Part shown: piece by piece, positions 12,885-30,329 of the stretch
Position numbering within the stretch: the stretch's first letter is position 1
How the letters are laid out: every line of letters starts with the position of its first letter
Assembly: GCA_964419595.1 (NCBI GenBank)
Contig: CAYQQI010000002.1
Coordinates: 1 to 45,827 of the forward strand
DNA from: an uncultured Candidatus Saccharibacteria bacterium
Lineage (GTDB): Bacteria; Patescibacteriota; Minisyncoccia; Phycocordibacterales; UBA2100
Length of the DNA stretch: 45,827 bases
Direction of reading: 5' to 3'
The notes under the pieces: model-generated
Seen by the model: only the letters and a program-made list of their open reading frames with translations
What the model was told of the DNA's origin: nothing
Database searches by the model: none
Made by a program: the position numbers and the translations under genes

Positions 12885-14156
12885 ATGCCGCGGATAGTTC
12901 TCTACACGGTGGTTCTCATCATTTTCTTCTCATTCGGGAGTGCATACGCCGCCAATACCATCAACTGGACCTTCTACGGTCCCGGCGCGAAAGGGAGAAT
13001 GCAGGGTCCGATGACCGCCGCCTCGAACAATCTCGAAGGCAATAATTCGATCCGAACGCTCGATGATGTGCGAACCGGAAAATCAAAATACGTAACGCTC
13101 GCATCTGCAAATTCGATGCGAGGACGTTACTACTGTATCGGAACCGTTACGTACACATCGCCGTCCGGTAATGGAGGGGACGGGAAGACACACACGATTG
13201 AAAATGTGGTGGGATATGTGCACGACACCGGATGCGCATTCAACGGTACGTGCTCGTGCGGATTCGTAGCACAATTTTGTGACGGCAAAGCGCGCCCTGA
13301 GAAAATGGATATCGCGATCGGCAATTTCACGGGCTATGAGGCGCTCGAGGCTTCTAATTACATAATAAAGAATCCGAATCGCGCACCCAAGGATTGGACG
13401 CAGCTTGCAGGTCTCCCTCAAAAATCGGCAGGTGCACAGTCCGCGGTGAACGCCTGCGGCGGGGAGATACGGGAGCAGGGAATGCCCACACAGGCTCCGT
13501 ATGTATCGCCCCCGTACACACCGCAGCCGCCCGCTACGCCTTCGACCGGGTCGTACCACAATCCGCAAACGTCACAGTCCGCTCCGCAGCCGCAGTCCTC
13601 TCCGACAGGAGGGTCGGCCGGAAGCGGCATGTCGACCGTCGGACAATCGTATACGACCCCGAGCTACGCCGGTACTCCCATGCCAACAACCGCCACGAAT
13701 ATTCCGACCCCGAACATGACACAAAGCCCTCTGCTAACGACATTGTTCCAGCAATCCAGCGCAACTTCCGGCATACGCTCGGTACAAAATACTGCACAGG
13801 CCATTGTTGATCTCTTTACCGTTCCCAATACGAACGCAGGAAGAGCTACTCAGGCGCAGATGGGGCAAAACGTTGTGTTGCCGTTTGATGTGAATGCATC
13901 AAACGTCTCGCTCATGGCGGTTTCTCAGCTTGAGGGATCTGGTCTCGTACCGCCACAGAACATTATTTCGTCAGAGGTACCGCGGCCGAATAATCCGGTG
14001 CTCGCCGCTCTTCAACAGGAAAGCACCTTTGACGCACGTACTGCAGTACAAACTCAGGCAGAATATTCGCCCGCAACAACGAACGCCTTCCTATCCATTT
14101 TGGCGTCATTCCGTACGTTGTTTGAAAGCATGATGCGACTCCTCACGCGTTCGTAG
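12885..14156 (+). CDS. Secreted protein: Cys-containing 3D/DPBB-like N-domain, P/Q/S/T-rich linker, unknown C-domain
   Basis: The signal peptide is MPRIVLYTVVLIIFFSFGSAYA. The stretch KYVTLASA...YVHDTGCAF...KMDIAIG resembles a 3D domain. A low-complexity region covers aa 200-285 (nt 13482-13739). GGTACAAT-N7-ATG precedes the start. Confidence 0.6.
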   Translation: MPRIVLYTVVLIIFFSFGSAYAANTINWTFYGPGAKGRMQGPMTAASNNLEGNNSIRTLDDVRTGKSKYVTLASANSMRGRYYCIGTVTYTSPSGNGGDGKTHTIENVVGYVHDTGCAFNGTCSCGFVAQFCDGKARPEKMDIAIGNFTGYEALEASNYIIKNPNRAPKDWTQLAGLPQKSAGAQSAVNACGGEIREQGMPTQAPYVSPPYTPQPPATPSTGSYHNPQTSQSAPQPQSSPTGGSAGSGMSTVGQSYTTPSYAGTPMPTTATNIPTPNMTQSPLLTTLFQQSSATSGIRSVQNTAQAIVDLFTVPNTNAGRATQAQMGQNVVLPFDVNASNVSLMAVSQLEGSGLVPPQNIISSEVPRPNNPVLAALQQESTFDARTAVQTQAEYSPATTNAFLSILASFRTLFESMMRLLTRS

Positions 14157-14210
14157 TCTTCTCCACATCGTAAAGTCAGATCCGAGTGCGGTAACGGTAC
14201 AATAAACACA

Positions 14211-16145
14211 ATGCGTATCGCTGCCTCTGTTCTTGCATTCTTGTTCGTTGTTGCCCCTTTCACCGCGTCTGCGGCGATTGAATCATTAGACACACTTTGT
14301 AAGGGAAGTACGGGTGACCCATCGGGTTCCGCCACATTTACAGAGGGCCAAGACGCTTCTGTCATGGACACATTTCTCAAGAAAAAGGTCCTTTGCCCCA
14401 ATGCGTGCTACAACGTAACACTTACGCTCTCTATTGAAGCGCAGAAGCTGAAGATCGTCATTTCCGCCGTCAATAAATGCACCTCACCGCAACCGGACGC
14501 GTCAAAGATCAAGAGTGTATTCACTCCGCTTGAAAAACCGAATGAGGGCCGGAATTGTGTGAGCGGTAAAGGTTTACCGTCGATCACGGCTGTAACGAAA
14601 GCACTCGACCCGAATGTTTCAGGGGTTCCGTCATTTGCCTCCGGTATGGTACCTGCGGTTTTTAGAAATCCGAAGACCGTCGGTCCGAAGTCCCGCTGCG
14701 ACCAATCTGCAAACGATGTGATCGCGGCATTCACTCAAAACGGTAACAAGGGTTTGGACGTAGGCCTGAATAAATTAGCCGGGCTCTCAGGCCCTTCTGC
14801 TGTACCGGAGGGTTCCGTCACTCCTCCGGCAACCGTCTCGGATCCCGGAGTCACTCCCACTCCCGAAAAGCCGGCGACCGGTGAACGACCAGTAGGGGAC
14901 CTTACGAGTGATAACGAGGCGCTCTCGAAATTACTACAGGAAAAGTACGGTGTTTCCGAGGAGAGGGCAAACGAGATCGTTCAGAGTGATGCCGACAGAA
15001 TTCAAGCGATTGCAATGGTGGAGAAATCAATGAGTAACGATAAAGAAGGGGCGCAGGCGATCGCGAAGTCGCTGAATCTGAACGAAGACGTGCAGAGAAA
15101 TATCGCTAATATGGAACCGCCTAAACAGTACACACCGGAAGAAGCAAAGACGGTGTATGAAGAACAGCAAAGACAGCGGGAAAGCACATTCAATGAGCAA
15201 CGTGGACAAAAATCGGAGATGGATAGAGCGAAACAGGCGATCGCCAATATTGAAAGCAGTGGGGGACGGTATGACATGCTGGGGCCCGTCACTAAAAGTG
15301 GAGACAGGGCCTACGGAAAGTATCAAGTAATGGGCAACAATGTGGGTCCCTGGACTGAGGCGGCTCTGGGGTATCGCATGACGCCTGAACAGTTCCGCGC
15401 TGACCCGGCCGCACAGGAGAAGGTGTTTGAACATCGTTTCGGAGGCTACGTAGAAAAATACGGCAGTTACGAAAACGCGGCAAAAGTATGGTTCGGAGGA
15501 CCGGGCGGACTCGCAAATCAGTATCGGAGCGACATGCTCGGCACAAGTGTCGTCAGGTACGGTGAGCGATTTACGGCGTATTTTGAGAACGGACAAGTGA
15601 TCGGCGGAGGTAGTAGATACAGCAGCTCAGCGTTCAGCGGAGTCTCCGGCGGCGGTGGCCAGTACTACAATAATTACAGCGGTAGCCCGTTCGGATACGA
15701 CAATTCCGGGTATCAGGGTAATTATCAGACCGGATATTCAACACCGACGAGCTACGGTGGATACGGGTCGGGTTCGAATTCGGGGTGGTCGCAGGTTTTC
15801 TCCTACTTCTCGGGCTCGGGCTCGCAAGCACCACCAAGTCAACCATCCAGACAAGTGTATTATCCGACGCAATCAGTTCAAGCGGTCGCATCTATCATTG
15901 CGCAACCGCAGCAGGCCTATGTGGGTAACTCGATCGTAATATCGTGGTCGAGCGTAGGTATGAGAGCGGATGCTCCGTGCAGAACATTGATGCTCACAAA
16001 GAATTCAACCACAACCATCGGAACCACGAACGAGGGCTCGCGCATAGTCACCGCCACCTCCAGCGGGCTCATGCGATTCCTCATGGAGTGCAAACCACTC
16101 TCAGGGGGAACCGTTAGGCAGGCAACCGCCGTCGGCATACAGTAG
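14211..16145 (+). CDS. Secreted lytic-transglycosylase-like (SLT/lysozyme-fold) protein with a G/S/Y-rich region and a C-terminal Ig-like domain
   Basis: The signal peptide is MRIAASVLAFLFVVAPFTASA. IESSGGRYDMLGPVTKSGDRAYGKYQV fits the ES...AxGxxQ motif of SLT-type transglycosylases. A G/S/Y-rich stretch covers aa 464-553. The C-terminal block IVISWSSVGMRADAPC is typical of an Ig-like domain. Confidence 0.65.
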   Translation: MRIAASVLAFLFVVAPFTASAAIESLDTLCKGSTGDPSGSATFTEGQDASVMDTFLKKKVLCPNACYNVTLTLSIEAQKLKIVISAVNKCTSPQPDASKIKSVFTPLEKPNEGRNCVSGKGLPSITAVTKALDPNVSGVPSFASGMVPAVFRNPKTVGPKSRCDQSANDVIAAFTQNGNKGLDVGLNKLAGLSGPSAVPEGSVTPPATVSDPGVTPTPEKPATGERPVGDLTSDNEALSKLLQEKYGVSEERANEIVQSDADRIQAIAMVEKSMSNDKEGAQAIAKSLNLNEDVQRNIANMEPPKQYTPEEAKTVYEEQQRQRESTFNEQRGQKSEMDRAKQAIANIESSGGRYDMLGPVTKSGDRAYGKYQVMGNNVGPWTEAALGYRMTPEQFRADPAAQEKVFEHRFGGYVEKYGSYENAAKVWFGGPGGLANQYRSDMLGTSVVRYGERFTAYFENGQVIGGGSRYSSSAFSGVSGGGGQYYNNYSGSPFGYDNSGYQGNYQTGYSTPTSYGGYGSGSNSGWSQVFSYFSGSGSQAPPSQPSRQVYYPTQSVQAVASIIAQPQQAYVGNSIVISWSSVGMRADAPCRTLMLTKNSTTTIGTTNEGSRIVTATSSGLMRFLMECKPLSGGTVRQATAVGIQ

Positions 16146-19675: not shown

Positions 19676-19759
19676 ATGAAGTCGTACGATCATAAGAAAA
19701 TCGAGCAAAAGTGGCCCTCCTTCGCTAAAGCTACGGACGGGCAAGCAACGAGTGTATGA
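19676..19759 (+). CDS. 27-codon upstream ORF that duplicates the leuS N-terminus (MKSYDHKKIEQKWPSFAKATDGQATSV)
   Basis: Codons 1-13 match leuS codons 1-13 at 12 of 13 residues. Its TGA stop overlaps the leuS ATG (ATGA at 19756-19759). Confidence 0.35.
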   Translation: MKSYDHKKIEQKWPSFAKATDGQATSV

Positions 19760-22700
19760 AATCTTACGATCACAAAAAGATCGAGAAAAAGTGGCAGCGT
19801 CAATGGCAGACAGACGGCGCATATAAAACAGATACCGATACATCGAAACCGAAATATTATGTGCTCGACATGTTCCCGTATCCCTCGGGCGCAGGATTGC
19901 ACGTAGGACACCCGAAAGGATACATCGCCTCCGACATCGTTGCTCGAAAGAAGAGAATGGAAGGGTATCGTGTACTCCATCCGATGGGCTGGGATGCGTT
20001 CGGGCTTCCGGCAGAAAATTACGCCATCAAAACAGGCACACCTCCGCAGCAAACAACCGATGAGTCGATAAAAACATTTAAATCTCAGATATCGAATCTT
20101 TCACTCTCATACGATTGGGATCGAGAAATAGGCAGTCACCGCCCGGACTATTATCGCTGGACCCAGTGGCTTTTTACGAAATTCTTCGAGAAGGGACTCG
20201 TGTATAAGAAGAAGGCGCTCGTGAATTGGGACCCGGTGGACCAAACGGTTCTTGCGAACGAACAGGTGCTGCCCGACGGTACAGCGGAGCGTTCGGGAGC
20301 GGTGGTGGAAAAGAAGGACCTTGAACAATGGTTCTATAAGATCACTGACTACGCCGATGAGCTCGCGGATAGTTTGGATATTATCGACTGGCCTGAGAGC
20401 ACGAAAGTGAACCAACGGAACTGGATAGGCCGCTCTGAGGGAGCGGAAATTGATTTCGGACTCAAAATGGGTAAGCCGATGAAGTACGTATTTCTGCACG
20501 GATATAAAAGTCATGCGGACCGACCAAGACACAAATGGTATCGAGAACAGCTTGAAGCACTTGGTCACTCGGTAGTAATACCTGAACTCCCAAACACAGA
20601 TGAACCCGACGAAGGCGAGCAGGTTTCGGCTGCGTTGAATGCGGCTGAGCTCGACGAAAACACGATACTCGTCGGTCACAGCCTCGGAGGCATCGTTGCC
20701 ATGAAGGCGCTTCTAAAGTCAGGAAAGAAAATTGCCGGTCTGGTGCTCGTTGCCCCGGCTATGGGACCGTCAAAAGATAATGCTCCGAAACCGTTCCACA
20801 GTACGTTCACATGGGATATCGATCACGAGGCTATACAAAAGCAGACGCAGTACCGCGTGGTGCTTTCTGATCTTCAGGAGGTTCATCGCGTAAACTATTT
20901 GCAAGATCTGTCGGAGAAATTGGAAGCGAAGCTTATAGAGACAAAAGCGGAAGCCGCGCATTTTACCGCAGATAAAGAACCCGATGTATTGATGTGGATG
21001 CGACCGACAATTCGAGTGTTCACGACACGTCCCGACACACTATACGGCGCAACGTATTTAGTACTCGCACCCGAGCATCCATGGGTAACACTCGCGCTCG
21101 GTCACAATACGGTACTTAAAAATAACGACGAGGTGGCGGCGTATGTGGAAGCGTCAAAGAAAAAGACGGACATCGACAGACTCTCAACTGATAAGGAAAA
21201 GACGGGGGTGAGGCTCGAGGGTGTTGAGGCCGTGAACCCGGCTAATGGAGAGAAGATACCGCTGTACGTGGCAGATTATGTGCTCGCTCACTACGGCACC
21301 GGTGCAATCATGGCAGTACCCGCACACGACGAGCGCGATATGGCATTCGCCCGAAAGTACGATCTTCCCATCTCGCAAGTGGTGATGCCGGTATACGGTT
21401 CAGAAGACAAGCGACCGGATGCCGTGTTTCGAGAGACCATCAACGCAGTCGTGCGACACGACGACGGACGTCTGTTATTCCTCAAGTGGAAAGACTACAA
21501 GTGGGTTACGAACGTTATCGGCGGCGTTGAGCAAGGAGAAACATTGGAGCGCGCCGCAATTCGAGAAGTCCTTGAAGAAACAGGGTATCGGGTGCGCCCG
21601 GTATTTGTATCCCCGATAGCTATTGAGTCGCATTTTTATGCCGATCATAAAAAAGAGTGGCGCTCCCGACTTGATACTCCTATCTTGATGGAGCTTGAAA
21701 GTGACCAAAAAGGACCGCTTTCCGAAGCAGAGCGTGCACAACACGACACGGCATGGATGACATACGAGGAAGCGCTCGCGCACGGACTCTTTCATAACAA
21801 CAAACTGGCACTCGACCTCGCGTTGGGCAAGATCAGTGCCTACAGCGCGCCGCTCTACGGCGAAGGGCAGGTGCTCGTAAACTCCGAAGAATTCAACGGC
21901 ATGAGTGTGGAAGAAGGCAGGAAAGCAATTACCGAGAAGTACGGCCGCATAAAGAAAACGTACAAAATGCGCGACTGGCTTATCTCGCGACAGCGGTACT
22001 GGGGCACTCCGATTCCCATCGTGTACGACCCGGAAGGTAAAGCGCACGCGATACCGGAAGAACACTTGCCGTGGCTACTGCCAACAGACGTCGAATATCT
22101 TCCCAAAGGAACCTCGCCACTCGGGAGCTCACAAGAGCTAAAGAAGAGAACCGAGCGGATATTCGGCAAAGGCTGGACCTCGGAAATAGACACGATGGAT
22201 ACATTTGCCTGCTCCTCGTGGTATTTCTTCCGTTTTGCGGACCCGCACAACGACAAAGAATTTACGTCGAAGCAGGCGCTCGAGGACTGGTTGCCGGTTG
22301 ATCTGTACATCGGAGGAGCAGAGCACACAGTGCTTCATCTTCTCTACGCACGATTTTACACAAAAAGTCTTCGTGACATGGGCTACCTCAATTTCAATGA
22401 GCCGTTCCTCAAACTGCGACACCAGGGACTCATCATGGCGGAAGACGGACGCAAAATGAGCAAACGTTACGGCAACGTGATTAACCCTGACGACATCGTG
22501 GAGAGCTATGGAGCCGATACGCTCCGCGTGTACGAAATGTTCATGGGACCGTTCCAAGACTCCATTGCGTGGAATACGCAGAGCATGATCGGCTCTCGTC
22601 GATTCCTCGAGCGAGCGTGGCGCCTTGCGGATAAACTTGCCGAGGCGCCCGATGAATCTCATGAGCGGTTATTGCACCGGACAATCAAGAAAGTAGGGGA

Positions 22701-23118
22701 GGACATTGATGCGTTTAAGTTCAACACCGCTATTTCAACACTCATGATATTTGTGAACGAATCCGAAAAGAAGGGAGTTACTACAGACCAATACGGGCGA
22801 TTCCTGCAGATGCTCGCACCGTTTGCGCCGCATCTTGCTGAAGAGCGCTGGCACGACATCGGTCACATTGAAAGTATTCTTTCGTTCCCGATGCCAGCTT
22901 ACGACGAAGATATGCTTGAGGAAGATACGGTGACTATAGCCATCCAGATAAACGGTAAGACACGCGGCGAAGTATCTCTCCCTATGGGAACAGGAAAAGC
23001 CGAAACCGAGGCAGCGGCTGCGAGCGCAGTGGAGGCGCGACTACTCGGAAAGAAGGTGACACGCATTATCGTGGTGCCCAACAAACTGGTGAATTTCGTA
23101 ATCCAGTCGGAGGACTAA
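19756..23118 (+). CDS. leuS: Leucyl-tRNA synthetase with two inserted hydrolase-like modules (1120 aa)
   Basis: The canonical LeuRS blocks occur in the usual order: HVGH (aa 49-52), NWIGRSEGAEIDF, FTTRPDT, GTGAIMAVPAHD, RDWLISRQRYWGTPIP, KMSKR, and the C-terminal VVPNKLVNFV. Extra segments lie at aa 238-416 and aa 548-700. Confidence 0.95.
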   Translation: MKSYDHKKIEKKWQRQWQTDGAYKTDTDTSKPKYYVLDMFPYPSGAGLHVGHPKGYIASDIVARKKRMEGYRVLHPMGWDAFGLPAENYAIKTGTPPQQTTDESIKTFKSQISNLSLSYDWDREIGSHRPDYYRWTQWLFTKFFEKGLVYKKKALVNWDPVDQTVLANEQVLPDGTAERSGAVVEKKDLEQWFYKITDYADELADSLDIIDWPESTKVNQRNWIGRSEGAEIDFGLKMGKPMKYVFLHGYKSHADRPRHKWYREQLEALGHSVVIPELPNTDEPDEGEQVSAALNAAELDENTILVGHSLGGIVAMKALLKSGKKIAGLVLVAPAMGPSKDNAPKPFHSTFTWDIDHEAIQKQTQYRVVLSDLQEVHRVNYLQDLSEKLEAKLIETKAEAAHFTADKEPDVLMWMRPTIRVFTTRPDTLYGATYLVLAPEHPWVTLALGHNTVLKNNDEVAAYVEASKKKTDIDRLSTDKEKTGVRLEGVEAVNPANGEKIPLYVADYVLAHYGTGAIMAVPAHDERDMAFARKYDLPISQVVMPVYGSEDKRPDAVFRETINAVVRHDDGRLLFLKWKDYKWVTNVIGGVEQGETLERAAIREVLEETGYRVRPVFVSPIAIESHFYADHKKEWRSRLDTPILMELESDQKGPLSEAERAQHDTAWMTYEEALAHGLFHNNKLALDLALGKISAYSAPLYGEGQVLVNSEEFNGMSVEEGRKAITEKYGRIKKTYKMRDWLISRQRYWGTPIPIVYDPEGKAHAIPEEHLPWLLPTDVEYLPKGTSPLGSSQELKKRTERIFGKGWTSEIDTMDTFACSSWYFFRFADPHNDKEFTSKQALEDWLPVDLYIGGAEHTVLHLLYARFYTKSLRDMGYLNFNEPFLKLRHQGLIMAEDGRKMSKRYGNVINPDDIVESYGADTLRVYEMFMGPFQDSIAWNTQSMIGSRRFLERAWRLADKLAEAPDESHERLLHRTIKKVGEDIDAFKFNTAISTLMIFVNESEKKGVTTDQYGRFLQMLAPFAPHLAEERWHDIGHIESILSFPMPAYDEDMLEEDTVTIAIQINGKTRGEVSLPMGTGKAETEAAAASAVEARLLGKKVTRIIVVPNKLVNFVIQSED

Positions 23119-23168: not shown

Positions 23169-24725
23169 TCACTTTTTCGGTTTTCTGTACACTTTCGGAC
23201 CTTCCGGCGTGTCCTCCACGCCGAGCGCAAGCACATCGAGCTCTTCGCGCAAAGCATCTGCGGTGGTCCAATTTTTTTCGGCACGTGCCGTTTCTCGTCG
23301 TGTGATGATGTCGGATATCTGTGCCGTTACTTCATTTTCCGAGAGGTAGTCGCGTACCTCTGCCTTTGCAAGAGCAAGAGCAGCGCTATCGGGTATAGCA
23401 AGATTGAGTCCCAACACTCGGTCCGCATCGAGGAGTGTTGCCAATCGTATGCCTTGGCCGAGTGTTTCGTCTTTAACCATTTCCCAGATGATAGCGAGTG
23501 CCCCCGCAGTATCAAGATCGTCATTGATGCGCTCGTGGAACTTGGTGCGATACTCCTCGGATACAACTCCCGGCTCGTCTGTGAATGAAAGACGAGCAGC
23601 TACAAGACGGGAATATGCATTTTGAGCGGCTGTAAGCGCTTCGTAGGTAAAATTCATCGATGTGCGGTAATGCGCACCGAGGAACAAGTACCGAAGTGCA
23701 AGCGGGTGGTAGCCCTTCTCGTGAATATCGGAAAGATAGATAACAGCACCTTTTGACTTTGCGATCTTGCCGCCGTTGATCTGAATATGTGCGCGGTGCA
23801 ACCAAAAGCGCGAGAGGGGCTTTTTGCCGGTTGCCGCCTCTGACTGTGCTATCTCATTGTTGTGGTGCACCGGAATGTGTTCGATGCCACCGGTATGAAT
23901 ATCGATCTGCTCACCGAGCGTTGCGCGTATCATTGCGGAGCATTCGATGTGCCAGCCGGGAAAGCCGAGCCCCCACGGGGATTCCCAGCCTATCTTCTTG
24001 TCGCTCTTCCACAGTAGAAAGTCCGTAGGGCTTCGCTTTTCAGCGGAGACGCCGATGCGGGCACCTTCGCGGAGTCCCGTAAGATCAATATTGCCAAGCT
24101 TGCCGTAGTCCGGGAATTGTGTGGTATCAAAATACACACCGTCCTTCGTTTTGTAAGCGTAGCTCTTTTCTTCGAGCGCTCGTATCATCGCGATCTGTGC
24201 GGGGATATATTCACTGGCATAGGGAAATGTGATCTTCTTCGTGTTGATATTGAGTTCCGTGATATCGGTAAGAAAAAGCTCGGCGTACTTTTTTGCCAGT
24301 ATCGCCATGTTCTCGAGTGTCGGCTTCATGCCTTCTCGCTTCAGACCCTTGGTCATGCGGTCCTCCCCCTCGTCGGCATTACCGTCGTTGTCGCCGGAAA
24401 GGTGTCCGAAGTCTGTAAAGTTGATGACCTGCTTTACAGAGAAGTTGTTGTACTCGAGTGTTCGTCGGAGCACATCGGTGAAAATGAACATCGAAAGATT
24501 GCCGATATGCTGGCGGCCGTACACCGTCGGGCCGCAGTTATACATGCGTACCGTTTTTACCCGAGGCGGGAGAGTAAAGAGCTCTTTATCCCCGGAGAGC
24601 GTGTTGTGAAGATTGAGCGTGGAAGGCTTACGTGCCTTAGCTGCGAGGCGCTGCTCGCTCCACGATCCCCCCGAGCTGATACCGAGTTCAGCAAGAAATG
24701 ACGCAACAAGCTCGGAAAATGTCAT
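23169..24725 (-). CDS. cysS: Cysteinyl-tRNA synthetase
   Basis: 518 aa with NCGPTVYGRQHIGN (HIGH region), GFPGWHIECSAM, and KIAKSKG (KMSKS). About 35 extra N-terminal residues precede the first conserved block. Confidence 0.93.
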   Translation of the reverse strand: MTFSELVASFLAELGISSGGSWSEQRLAAKARKPSTLNLHNTLSGDKELFTLPPRVKTVRMYNCGPTVYGRQHIGNLSMFIFTDVLRRTLEYNNFSVKQVINFTDFGHLSGDNDGNADEGEDRMTKGLKREGMKPTLENMAILAKKYAELFLTDITELNINTKKITFPYASEYIPAQIAMIRALEEKSYAYKTKDGVYFDTTQFPDYGKLGNIDLTGLREGARIGVSAEKRSPTDFLLWKSDKKIGWESPWGLGFPGWHIECSAMIRATLGEQIDIHTGGIEHIPVHHNNEIAQSEAATGKKPLSRFWLHRAHIQINGGKIAKSKGAVIYLSDIHEKGYHPLALRYLFLGAHYRTSMNFTYEALTAAQNAYSRLVAARLSFTDEPGVVSEEYRTKFHERINDDLDTAGALAIIWEMVKDETLGQGIRLATLLDADRVLGLNLAIPDSAALALAKAEVRDYLSENEVTAQISDIITRRETARAEKNWTTADALREELDVLALGVEDTPEGPKVYRKPKK

Positions 24726-29828: not shown

Positions 29829-30329
29829 ATGAATATACTCCGACGGCTCGGGATGTATCTTTCGCTTTCTATTATTCAGACAGCGCACGTATCGCGCTAC
29901 ACGCTCGGTAAATTGAGAGGGGAGACCGACTCTCACGGGGTACGCATACTGCTCATAGACGAACGGCGCGTCTTACTCGTGAGTCACTGGTATGCACCGT
30001 GGGCGTGGACACTACCGGGAGGTGGAGTCAATAAAGGAGAAACGCCGGAAGAAGCGGCAATGCGCGAAGCACGCGAAGAAACCGGACTCGAAGTGAATAC
30101 AATCGCAGGGGAGATAGGCACCTACACCGGCACGATGGGGAAGACCGACCGCGTAACCTTTTTCTACACCGGCGACTTTGGTGGCTCGCTCGCGATGCGA
30201 CCTAACTTTGAAATTATGGCGCGCTCGTGGTTTGACATCGATACCTTGCCGGACGAGCTTTCGCCCGGTAATCGCCGCCGCATCGAGGCCTACCGCGACG
30301 GCATTCGCAACGAAACAGGGAAGTGGTAG
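29829..30329 (+). CDS. NUDIX hydrolase
   Basis: 166 aa with the NUDIX box GGGVNKGETPEEAAMREAREETGLEV. Confidence 0.85.
   Translation: MNILRRLGMYLSLSIIQTAHVSRYTLGKLRGETDSHGVRILLIDERRVLLVSHWYAPWAWTLPGGGVNKGETPEEAAMREAREETGLEVNTIAGEIGTYTGTMGKTDRVTFFYTGDFGGSLAMRPNFEIMARSWFDIDTLPDELSPGNRRRIEAYRDGIRNETGKW

Follow-up and report, generated by a model that had tools for sequence, protein, structure and literature searches.

A bacterial-type leucyl-tRNA synthetase with a serine hydrolase and a NUDIX domain nested in its editing region, one form of a modular system in candidate phyla radiation bacteria

Why should a leucyl-tRNA synthetase (LeuRS) carry two further enzyme domains within its editing region? 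The question is raised by the leuS gene of an uncultured Candidatus Saccharibacteria bacterium (assembly GCA_964419595.1), which lies in a stretch of 45,827 nucleotides of contig CAYQQI010000002.1 (positions 1 to 45,827, hereafter the window). A first-pass annotation had described leuS as one uninterrupted open reading frame (ORF) of 1120 amino acids (aa) with two discrete insertions, a serine hydrolase and a NUDIX module, on either side of the editing core of connective peptide 1 (CP1). We confirm this observation, and the interpretation attached to it is partly supported. Nor is the architecture an isolated case: it is one of the combinations within a large modular system that extends over LeuRS, isoleucyl-tRNA synthetase (IleRS) and valyl-tRNA synthetase (ValRS) of candidate phyla radiation (CPR) bacteria. 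For a functional link, the strongest evidence is that relatives encode this hydrolase on its own, in a gene immediately upstream of leuS.

The leuS frame, 19756-23118 on the forward strand, runs without interruption over all 1120 aa. Its main parts and synthetase motifs are as follows.

19756..23118 (+): leuS, bacterial-type LeuRS with two nested domains; a single ORF of 1120 aa, matched by TIGR00396 and collinear with the LeuRS structures of T. thermophilus and E. coli
19900..19911 (+): HIGH motif, in the form HVGH, aa 49-52
20467..21009 (+): insert 1, aa 238-418, predicted lid-less serine hydrolase of the YdeN/RBBP9 family (PF06821), in place of a hairpin turn
21010..21384 (+): CP1 editing core between the inserts, aa 419-543 (PF13603)
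21022-21039 (+): TTRPDT, aa 423-428, threonine-rich editing motif kept in LeuRS
21295-21339 (+): GTGAIMAVPAHDERD, aa 514-528, editing motif with the conserved Asp (GTG...D)
21385..21855 (+): insert 2, aa 544-700, NUDIX hydrolase domain (PF00293), in place of a loop
21856..23115 (+): C-terminal part of LeuRS, aa 701-1120, with the end of the editing domain, the second Rossmann half, and the anticodon-binding and C-terminal domains
22453-22467 (+): KMSKR, aa 900-904, KMSKS-type motif in the second half of the Rossmann fold

The NCBIfam model TIGR00396 (leuS_bact) matched the protein with 928.7 bits against a curated cut-off of 548.4, in three stretches owing to the inserts, and Pfam recognised tRNA-synt_1, the editing domain PF13603 (E = 5.7e-55) and Anticodon_1. 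Alignment to Thermus thermophilus (Tt) LeuRS 1h3n gave four collinear blocks (whole-protein E = 2.7e-204), in which query residues 1-237 correspond to Tt 1-237, 419-543 to Tt 243-362, 701-896 to Tt 377-580, and 899-1117 to Tt 636-877. Thus, aa 238-418 stand for 5 residues (Tt 238-242) and aa 544-700 for 14 (Tt 363-376), and the leucine-specific domain is absent from the window LeuRS. The insertion boundaries of the first-pass annotation moved by only 2-4 residues in this alignment, and the positions it gave for aa 238 (nt 20467), Ser309 (nt 20680-20682) and the NUDIX box (nt 21520-21588) were exact. As it had also stated, the editing domain is kept between the inserts, with PF13603, TTRPDT and GTGAIMAVPAHDERD all present; both motifs are unchanged in every relative, whether inserts are present or not.

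Insert 1 carries the candidate catalytic residues listed below.

20497..20502 (+): H248-G249, an 'HG' motif of the kind commonly seen at the oxyanion hole of alpha/beta-hydrolases
20674..20691 (+): nucleophile elbow GHSLGG, with Ser309 at nt 20680-20682
20869..20880 (+): D372-L-Q-E375, candidate catalytic acid, E375 being aligned to RBBP9 D138
20959..20961 (+): His402, candidate triad His

Both inserts scored above the Pfam gathering (GA) cut-offs, within the whole protein as well as alone. For insert 1, PF06821 (Ser_hydrolase) matched aa 245-406 with 44.0 bits in the whole protein and 48.8 bits on the insert (GA 22), covering profile positions 2-157 of 172. A profile of the insert-1 family, searched against the PDB, found YdeN 1uxo (E = 2e-22) and RBBP9 (E = 7.5e-18) over nearly their full length. 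The AlphaFold 2 (AF2) model of insert 1 alone was confident (predicted local distance difference test score, pLDDT, 95.7; predicted template-modelling score, pTM, 0.92), and Foldseek superposed it with template-modelling (TM) scores of 0.80-0.82 on RBBP9-Phe 7oex, 9fcr and YdeN 1uxo. Profile and fold matches thus bear out the YdeN/RBBP9-type assignment made from the sequence, and the model predicts a minimal alpha/beta-hydrolase fold without a lid. Conservation was followed in 73 relatives, often only ~50% identical. The HG motif is kept in 71 of them (97%), Ser309 in 72 (99%) as well as in each of the 84 copies that lie within LeuRS or IleRS, and His402 in 71 (97%). The first-pass annotation had pointed to a candidate Asp and His; the His stands as His402, but the acid at the position of RBBP9 D138 is E375, although D372 is itself 93% conserved (68/73). 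An acidic residue, Asp or Glu, occupies position 375 in 71 of the 73 (97%).

Among the Pfam and NCBIfam matches of either insert there was none to the YbaK/INS, AlaX, DTD or ThrRS N2 editing folds, so that the serine hydrolase, if it is a deacylase, would be one of a new kind. A conserved C-terminal 'HF...EP..L' segment of insert 1 was considered as a surface for docking to LeuRS and dropped: free-standing homologues share the motif, and it therefore belongs to the hydrolase domain itself.

The corresponding features of insert 2 are the following.

21520..21588 (+): NUDIX box GGVEQGETLERAAIREVLEETGY, G589-x5-E595-x7-R603-E604-V-x-E607-E608-x-G610-Y611, aa 589-611
21637..21639 (+): Tyr628, 17 residues past the box, at the position of the specificity tyrosine of ApnA hydrolases

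PF00293 (GA 21.1) matched aa 559-677, scoring 48.2 bits when the whole protein was searched and 52.9 bits with the insert by itself. The first-pass annotation had called the box an exact match to the signature GX5EX7REUXEEXGU; every specified position does fit, except that the last U is Tyr rather than Ile, Leu or Val, and Tyr stands there in 91% of relatives. Over 101 relatives, conservation is high at G589 (97%), E604 (98%), E607 (94%), E608 (99%) and G610 (97%) and lower, about 80%, at E595 and R603. The AF2 model of this insert alone was again confident (pLDDT 92.2, pTM 0.85), in line with the expectation that the inserts form separate globular domains. Searched against PDB folds, it gave 524 matches at E <= 0.001, and all 50 of those listed are NUDIX proteins; at the top stand the Ap6A hydrolase Ndx1 (1vc8) and the Ap4A hydrolase aq_158 of Aquifex (3i7u), with target-normalised TM scores of 0.78-0.80 in Foldseek. 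The best profile matches among solved structures are likewise Ap4A hydrolases, 1f3y from lupin and 3i7u. A tyrosine about 16-18 residues after the box marks ApnA hydrolases (Dunn et al. 1999, as cited in PMC5389931), and columns 627 and 628 are each Phe or Tyr in 96 of the 101 relatives (column 628: Tyr in 66, Phe in 30). We tentatively regard insert 2 as a putative ApnA (Ap4A/Ap6A) hydrolase. Of the NUDIX substrates first suggested (Leu-AMP, non-cognate adenylates or Ap4A), Ap4A would fit best, judging by these matches and the tyrosine; action on Leu-AMP, an acyl-phosphate, is not supported, since acyl-phosphates are not known to be NUDIX substrates.

The catalytic residues of both inserts thus appear to be under purifying selection across relatives that share ~50% identity. 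The first-pass annotation had allowed that the segments might be ordinary loops lacking catalytic residues in relatives, which this survey contradicts.

A separate NUDIX gene lies ~7 kb downstream of leuS in the window (29829-30329, +, 166 aa) and also occurs in a close relative (L001:17426-17926). It was considered as the source of insert 2 and rejected: the likeness is limited to the region of the box (16/28 identities), so this gene is no recent paralogue of the insert. Recent foreign acquisition of the inserts was likewise rejected, as both resemble the remaining leuS in GC content and codon use without anomaly. Borders of an intein or mobile element were sought too; there was no Hint or homing-endonuclease match in Pfam, and no repeats were present at the DNA junctions of the inserts.

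To what extent is this architecture shared? We sorted the 120 best LeuRS homologues by their lengths at both insertion sites, and 118 could be classified. Both inserts occur in 54 of them, which come from independent assemblies and have the same junctions; 41 carry the NUDIX domain only, 13 the serine hydrolase only, and 4 neither. Other contents were seen as well: a Ham1-like domain at site 1 (P0093 and P0110), a HAD domain with a DFDGVLG motif at site 2 (P0101), and a ~120-aa segment without assignment at site 2 of P0049. The source names include Kaiserbacteria, Adlerbacteria, Paceibacterota, Minisyncoccota and Spechtbacterales, and the names in the public records vary from 'alpha/beta fold hydrolase' and 'class I tRNA ligase family protein' to 'hypothetical protein'. 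Both inserts are optional modules, and relatives carry both, either or neither.

The turnover at site 1 was followed by comparing window positions 20467-21009 with L001:8667-8800 and proteins P0002-P0012. Among LeuRSs that are 84-92% identical in their core, some bear the hydrolase and others an unrelated hairpin, 13 aa longer (YLDFGDETINARTDPQGKRAHITVF). In a tree built on the core, proteins of the two kinds are intermixed; for example, P0002, with the hydrolase, and P0006, without it, are 92% identical. There is no extra divergence beside the site-1 junction. Allele exchange by recombination is the obvious candidate for this pattern of presence and absence. A recombination signal around site 1 was sought by sliding-window identity, which showed no clustering by architecture.

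The same hydrolase is also found elsewhere. A genome scan with the insert-1 profile, covering one genome per GTDB species, returned 339 stretches, of which the best 80 were examined. Among these 80, the hydrolase occupies LeuRS site 1 at 63 loci, whose labels include Kaiserbacteria, Paceibacteria, Doudnabacteria, Taylorbacteria, Minisyncoccia, Kerfeldbacteria and others; at two loci (L056 and L068) it sits at another LeuRS site, past the RDW..SRQRYWG motif in the catalytic core; and at 12 Saccharibacteria loci it lies within IleRS, just ahead of the WTTTPWT editing motif. Some Saccharibacteria IleRSs, of ~1700 aa, add a low-molecular-weight (LMW) phosphatase (PF01451), a NUDIX domain and a second copy of the hydrolase. 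This second copy is degenerate: the HG motif is gone, and so are the His and the conserved Asp that aligns with LeuRS D372. An IleRS at L061:3287-7762 has a nested GNAT domain. The IleRS genes with Saccharibacteria labels (Nanosynbacter, Saccharimonadales) measure 1200-1700 aa and lie at loci L069-L082, e.g. L079:2384-7468 and L078:2465-7057.

When 1.84 billion representative proteins were searched with the insert-1 profile, 78 matched at E <= 1e-30 and 1631 at E <= 1e-10. Further arrangements of LeuRS appeared among them: NUDIX at site 2 with the hydrolase past the RDW motif (P0148, P0158), the hydrolase again at the site past RDW..SRQRYWG (P0134) or farther downstream (P0269), NUDIX at a different CP1 position (P0179), GNAT together with the hydrolase (P0201), and a HAD domain (P0131). 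In P0170 (998 aa), an IS200-like Y1 transposase (HUH, with MPEHVHLLV) is nested in frame at site 1, aa 269-374, and a serine hydrolase follows past the RDW motif; the HUH domain could be a hint at how domains enter these loops, or could be a domesticated domain. Lastly, P0176 (1260 aa) is a ValRS, with the Val_tRNA-synt_C arm, that carries the hydrolase subfamily in its catalytic core (aa 651-827). All three editing class Ia synthetases, for Leu, Ile and Val, therefore host this serine-hydrolase domain.

Four proteins, P0125, P0131, P0133 and P0169, were considered as N-terminal fusions of an abhydrolase. The editing domain comes next in each and there is no N-terminal catalytic core, so that they look like LeuRS fragments beginning at site 1.

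At eight loci with Saccharimonadales or Saccharibacteria labels (L042, L054, L057, L059, L062, L063, L064 and L071), LeuRS has the hydrolase and no NUDIX insert. A NUDIX gene of 167-197 aa with the motif W-x-I-P-K-G-H-x-E-x-G-E, which we take to be typical of NUDT2-like Ap4A hydrolases, lies there on the same strand, ~1.2-1.8 kb downstream of leuS.

We asked whether the hydrolase subfamily exists only inside synthetases, and rejected this notion: the protein search revealed genuine free-standing members of ~180 aa that begin with Met and keep all catalytic residues. Gene context was seen for seven of them and was informative for six (P0150 being uninformative). The gene of P0123 lies 7 bp upstream of a leuS without inserts, and that of P0152 lies 36 bp upstream of another such leuS, in each case on the same strand. 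P0146 is encoded 24 bp upstream of a leuS that bears only the NUDIX insert, and this locus is a split form of the window's gene. P0147 opens a tightly packed, partly overlapping string of genes (L091:6001-10882, GCA_020049755.1) for a Ser_hydrolase of 182 aa, a Ser_hydrolase of 192 aa, a YbaK-like tRNA_edit protein (PF04073) of 162 aa, a Ham1-like protein of 205 aa and a LeuRS of 883 aa, which is of the archaeal type (TIGR00395, 784 bits). The Ham1-like gene of this operon recalls the Ham1-like domain nested in LeuRS elsewhere. Hence, 4 of the 6 informative contexts, all from separate 50%-identity clusters, have the hydrolase next to leuS, whereas by chance this would be expected for roughly one gene in several hundred. 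Fusion of genes and conservation of their neighbourhood are classic signs of functional partnership, and nesting together with adjacency points to a functional connection between the serine hydrolase and LeuRS. The NUDIX domain has a weaker genetic link to leuS; strong free-standing relatives of the insert do exist (167 bits).

One such relative, P0274, is surrounded by four NUDIX and two HIT-family genes at L097:3554-8880, which looks like a nucleotide-housekeeping cluster.

What could the nested hydrolases do? We give a roughly even chance to the reading that they are optional tethered partner enzymes which clear the side-products of the synthetase, both modules being held beside it for their removal. 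Synthetases form Ap4A and other ApnN when ATP or another nucleotide attacks the enzyme-bound aminoacyl-adenylate, and aminoacyl-tRNA synthetases are the main makers of Ap3-5N (PMC7705103). The NUDIX domain would most likely hydrolyse these dinucleoside polyphosphates (Ap4A/ApnN). The serine hydrolase would most likely cleave an alpha-aminoacyl-X bond through an aminoacyl-Ser309 intermediate, where X may be the 3' end of a mischarged tRNA, AMP from a non-cognate adenylate that has been released, or the thioester in homocysteine thiolactone. The bond attacked would accordingly be an ester, a mixed anhydride or a thioester. According to Jakubowski's work, LeuRS, IleRS and methionyl-tRNA synthetase (MetRS) reportedly yield homocysteine thiolactone when they reject homocysteine. 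RBBP9, of all characterised proteins the nearest to insert 1, acts as an aminopeptidase and requires a free alpha-amine on its substrate (PMC8866121). BPHL, a further alpha/beta-hydrolase, hydrolyses amino-acid esters and is also an efficient enzyme on homocysteine thiolactone (PMC4198189). The first-pass annotation had suggested that the esterase fold might add or replace a proofreading activity; replacement is not supported by the editing motifs, which are intact in every relative with or without inserts, so the hydrolase activity would supplement canonical CP1 editing. Several insertion sites and the existence of a separate protein indicate that exact geometry relative to the CP1 pocket is not essential and that proximity may suffice.

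A bolder form of this reading, which we regard as possible though rather doubtful, is that the YdeN/RBBP9-type hydrolase is an unrecognised quality-control or detoxification factor dedicated to the Leu, Ile and Val synthetases, a new fold for editing in cis and in trans, which together with the ApnA-type NUDIX would make LeuRS self-cleaning. Such a factor would take three interchangeable forms in CPR bacteria: a gene neighbour of leuS, a member of an operon with a YbaK-like deacylase, and a nested domain. If true, this would offer a first clue to the function of PF06821 proteins in bacteria, YdeN among them.

Several observations weigh against assigning the inserts to the clearance of synthetase side-products. 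The substrates proposed for both domains are guesses. In the profile alignment the residues with which RBBP9 holds the alpha-amine (S76, Y99 and E108) fall in a variable loop and are not conserved; membership of the PF06821 fold stands, but it does not imply that insert 1 and RBBP9 share a substrate. Other NUDIX subfamilies match insert 2 only slightly less well than ApnA hydrolases do (in the profile search, E of ~1e-9 for ApnA hydrolases against 5e-8; in the fold search, 1e-8 against 1e-7), which makes ApnA a lead and not an assignment for insert 2. In a NUDIX-only subclade the box is partly degenerate (E595->Q, R603->M/A, sometimes E607->Q), and catalysis may be altered or lost there while the domain is otherwise kept. 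The serine hydrolase is dispensable over short times, since LeuRSs with 84-92% core identity do without it. As for context, P0137 and P0157 have no adjoining synthetase gene, one syntenic relative that lacks inserts has no hydrolase gene beside leuS, and two free-standing relatives of the NUDIX insert lie away from leuS, one near ftsZ and one in the NUDIX/HIT island. The LeuRSs with the degenerate box are P0027, P0032, P0038, P0040, P0043, P0053, P0055, P0068, P0073, P0091 and P0116.

The same facts can be read in a way that leaves LeuRS out. Permissive loops of CP1, and a few others in class Ia synthetases, might in CPR genomes collect unrelated housekeeping enzymes that gain only co-expression with an essential and well-expressed gene, the two hydrolases then acting independently of LeuRS, e.g. 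in general sanitation of the nucleotide pool and as an esterase or aminopeptidase of general use. GNAT, LMW phosphatase (LMWPc), HAD, Ham1-like and IS200-like HUH (Y1_Tnp) domains nest at the same places, and a permissive landing pad fits these unrelated guests as well as a functional module does; this, too, counts against clearance of side-products. Insertion positions vary, presence differs among LeuRSs 84-92% identical with unchanged editing motifs, and neither of the two free-standing NUDIX relatives just named adjoins leuS, one of them lying in a housekeeping-like island. Co-expression by nesting is, however, no explanation for free-standing hydrolases, which lie directly upstream of leuS in the 4 of 6 contexts, including the operon of an archaeal-type leuS with a YbaK-like deacylase; moreover, all hosts found are editing class Ia synthetases for Leu, Ile and Val and no other large essential proteins. 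We therefore consider passive accumulation somewhat unlikely, though a serious competitor. CPR bacteria are generally without amino-acid biosynthesis, and in such an auxotroph the serine hydrolase might instead be an N-terminal aminopeptidase for hydrophobic residues, of the type of RBBP9 and its plant relative, that frees Leu, Ile or Val from imported peptides beside the matching synthetase. The identity of the hosts, the adjacency to leuS and the habit of RBBP9 of stripping single N-terminal hydrophobic or aromatic residues (PMC8866121) would all suit such a role. It is nevertheless improbable, given that the RBBP9 residues for the alpha-amine and the aromatic pocket are not conserved, that the operon partner at L091 is a protein of the tRNA deacylase type and no peptide transporter or peptidase, and that the NUDIX, Ham1-like and HAD companions are left unexplained.

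Loss of catalytic residues in the NUDIX-only subclade and in the second IleRS copy would agree with one or both domains being ligand sensors or structural modules, for instance a NUDIX domain that modulates LeuRS or contacts tRNA, and non-enzymatic NUDIX domains are known (PMC5389931). Since the window protein and most relatives keep every catalytic residue of both domains, a non-catalytic role is quite improbable for them. That a chimeric assembly or a hidden frameshift fused separate hydrolase genes to leuS is hardly credible. Its sole support is that the source is apparently a metagenome assembly. Against it, the frame is continuous, the junctions are in frame on both sides of both inserts, composition is uniform across leuS, there are records of an identical protein from two contigs (497.6 kb in the case of the longer one), and the 54 independent homologues with both inserts have the same junctions, with syntenic loci in two close relatives; the frameshift or mis-join that the first-pass annotation had allowed for is thus effectively excluded by the continuous frame and by an architecture that more than 50 independent assemblies of Paceibacteria and Kaiserbacteria-like CPR bacteria share. 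Of these readings, clearance of synthetase side-products by tethered enzymes is the one we favour.

Compared with bacterial LeuRS of known structure (T. thermophilus 1h3n/2byt, E. coli 4aq7/4arc), the window protein has the same order of domains, with HIGH and KMSKS-type motifs, TTRPDT, GTG...HD.RD, and anticodon-binding and C-terminal domains, but it has enzyme domains of 181 and 157 aa in place of loops of 5 and 14 residues and is without the leucine-specific domain. With YdeN (Bacillus subtilis 1uxo) and RBBP9 (human 2qs9/7oex), insert 1 shares the lid-less fold of ~180 aa, the HG motif, the GHS.G elbow, an acid at the position of D138 and the His, while it is only 21-23% identical to them and is nested in, or linked to, class Ia synthetases. 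Insert 2 shares the fold, the box and the Tyr ~17 residues past the box with ApnA NUDIX hydrolases (Ndx1 1vc8, aq_158 3i7u, lupin 1f3y, human NUDT2 3u53); it differs in its 23-27% identity, in the Tyr at the last box position and in being nested in an editing domain. The principle of an accessory enzyme attached to, or encoded beside, a synthetase is shared with the trans-editing factors YbaK/ProXp, AlaX and DTD, whereas the folds differ (alpha/beta hydrolase and NUDIX) and the modules are nested inside CP1, not appended. A curated precedent is the NCBIfam model NF040702 ('isoleucine--tRNA ligase, N-acetyltransferase domain-containing'), which describes IleRS in which a GNAT domain is nested.

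The first-pass annotation knew of no described LeuRS with either domain, and we too found no description of any synthetase, LeuRS included, in which a NUDIX or alpha/beta-hydrolase domain is nested, nor any link of PF06821 proteins with leuS, in the full-text literature searched, subscription-only papers lying outside it. LeuRS sequences with these inserts have been public for years under inconsistent names. Appended or inserted synthetase modules are a known theme, but the nested NUDIX and alpha/beta hydrolase in LeuRS are apparently undescribed. The prevailing view is that a few well-catalogued editing folds account for the fidelity of aminoacyl-tRNA synthetases; intact-looking hydrolases in the editing domain, together with the gene neighbours of leuS, point to a further accessory activity. 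CPR bacteria have tiny genomes and depend on scavenging, and in them the editing class Ia synthetases serve as scaffolds for a changing set of nested enzymes. The architecture, which would surprise a synthetase specialist, bears on domain insertion into essential proteins, on the handling of Ap4A and mis-activated amino acids in minimal cells, and on gene annotation, and the fusion and operon evidence makes a specific hypothesis testable.

The window locus reads YchF, DUF5671, LeuRS, CysRS (opposite strand), CorA and S41 peptidase. Two close relatives have the same neighbourhood, one with both inserts in LeuRS and the other with NUDIX only. A scan of the entire 45.8-kb window (1-45827) gave no tRNA genes and no Rfam matches at gathering score. 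Two large ORFs upstream of leuS (423 and 644 aa, window 12885-16145) have no Pfam match. CysRS, at 23169-24725 on the minus strand (518 aa), has an N-terminal extension of ~56 aa ahead of its catalytic domain.

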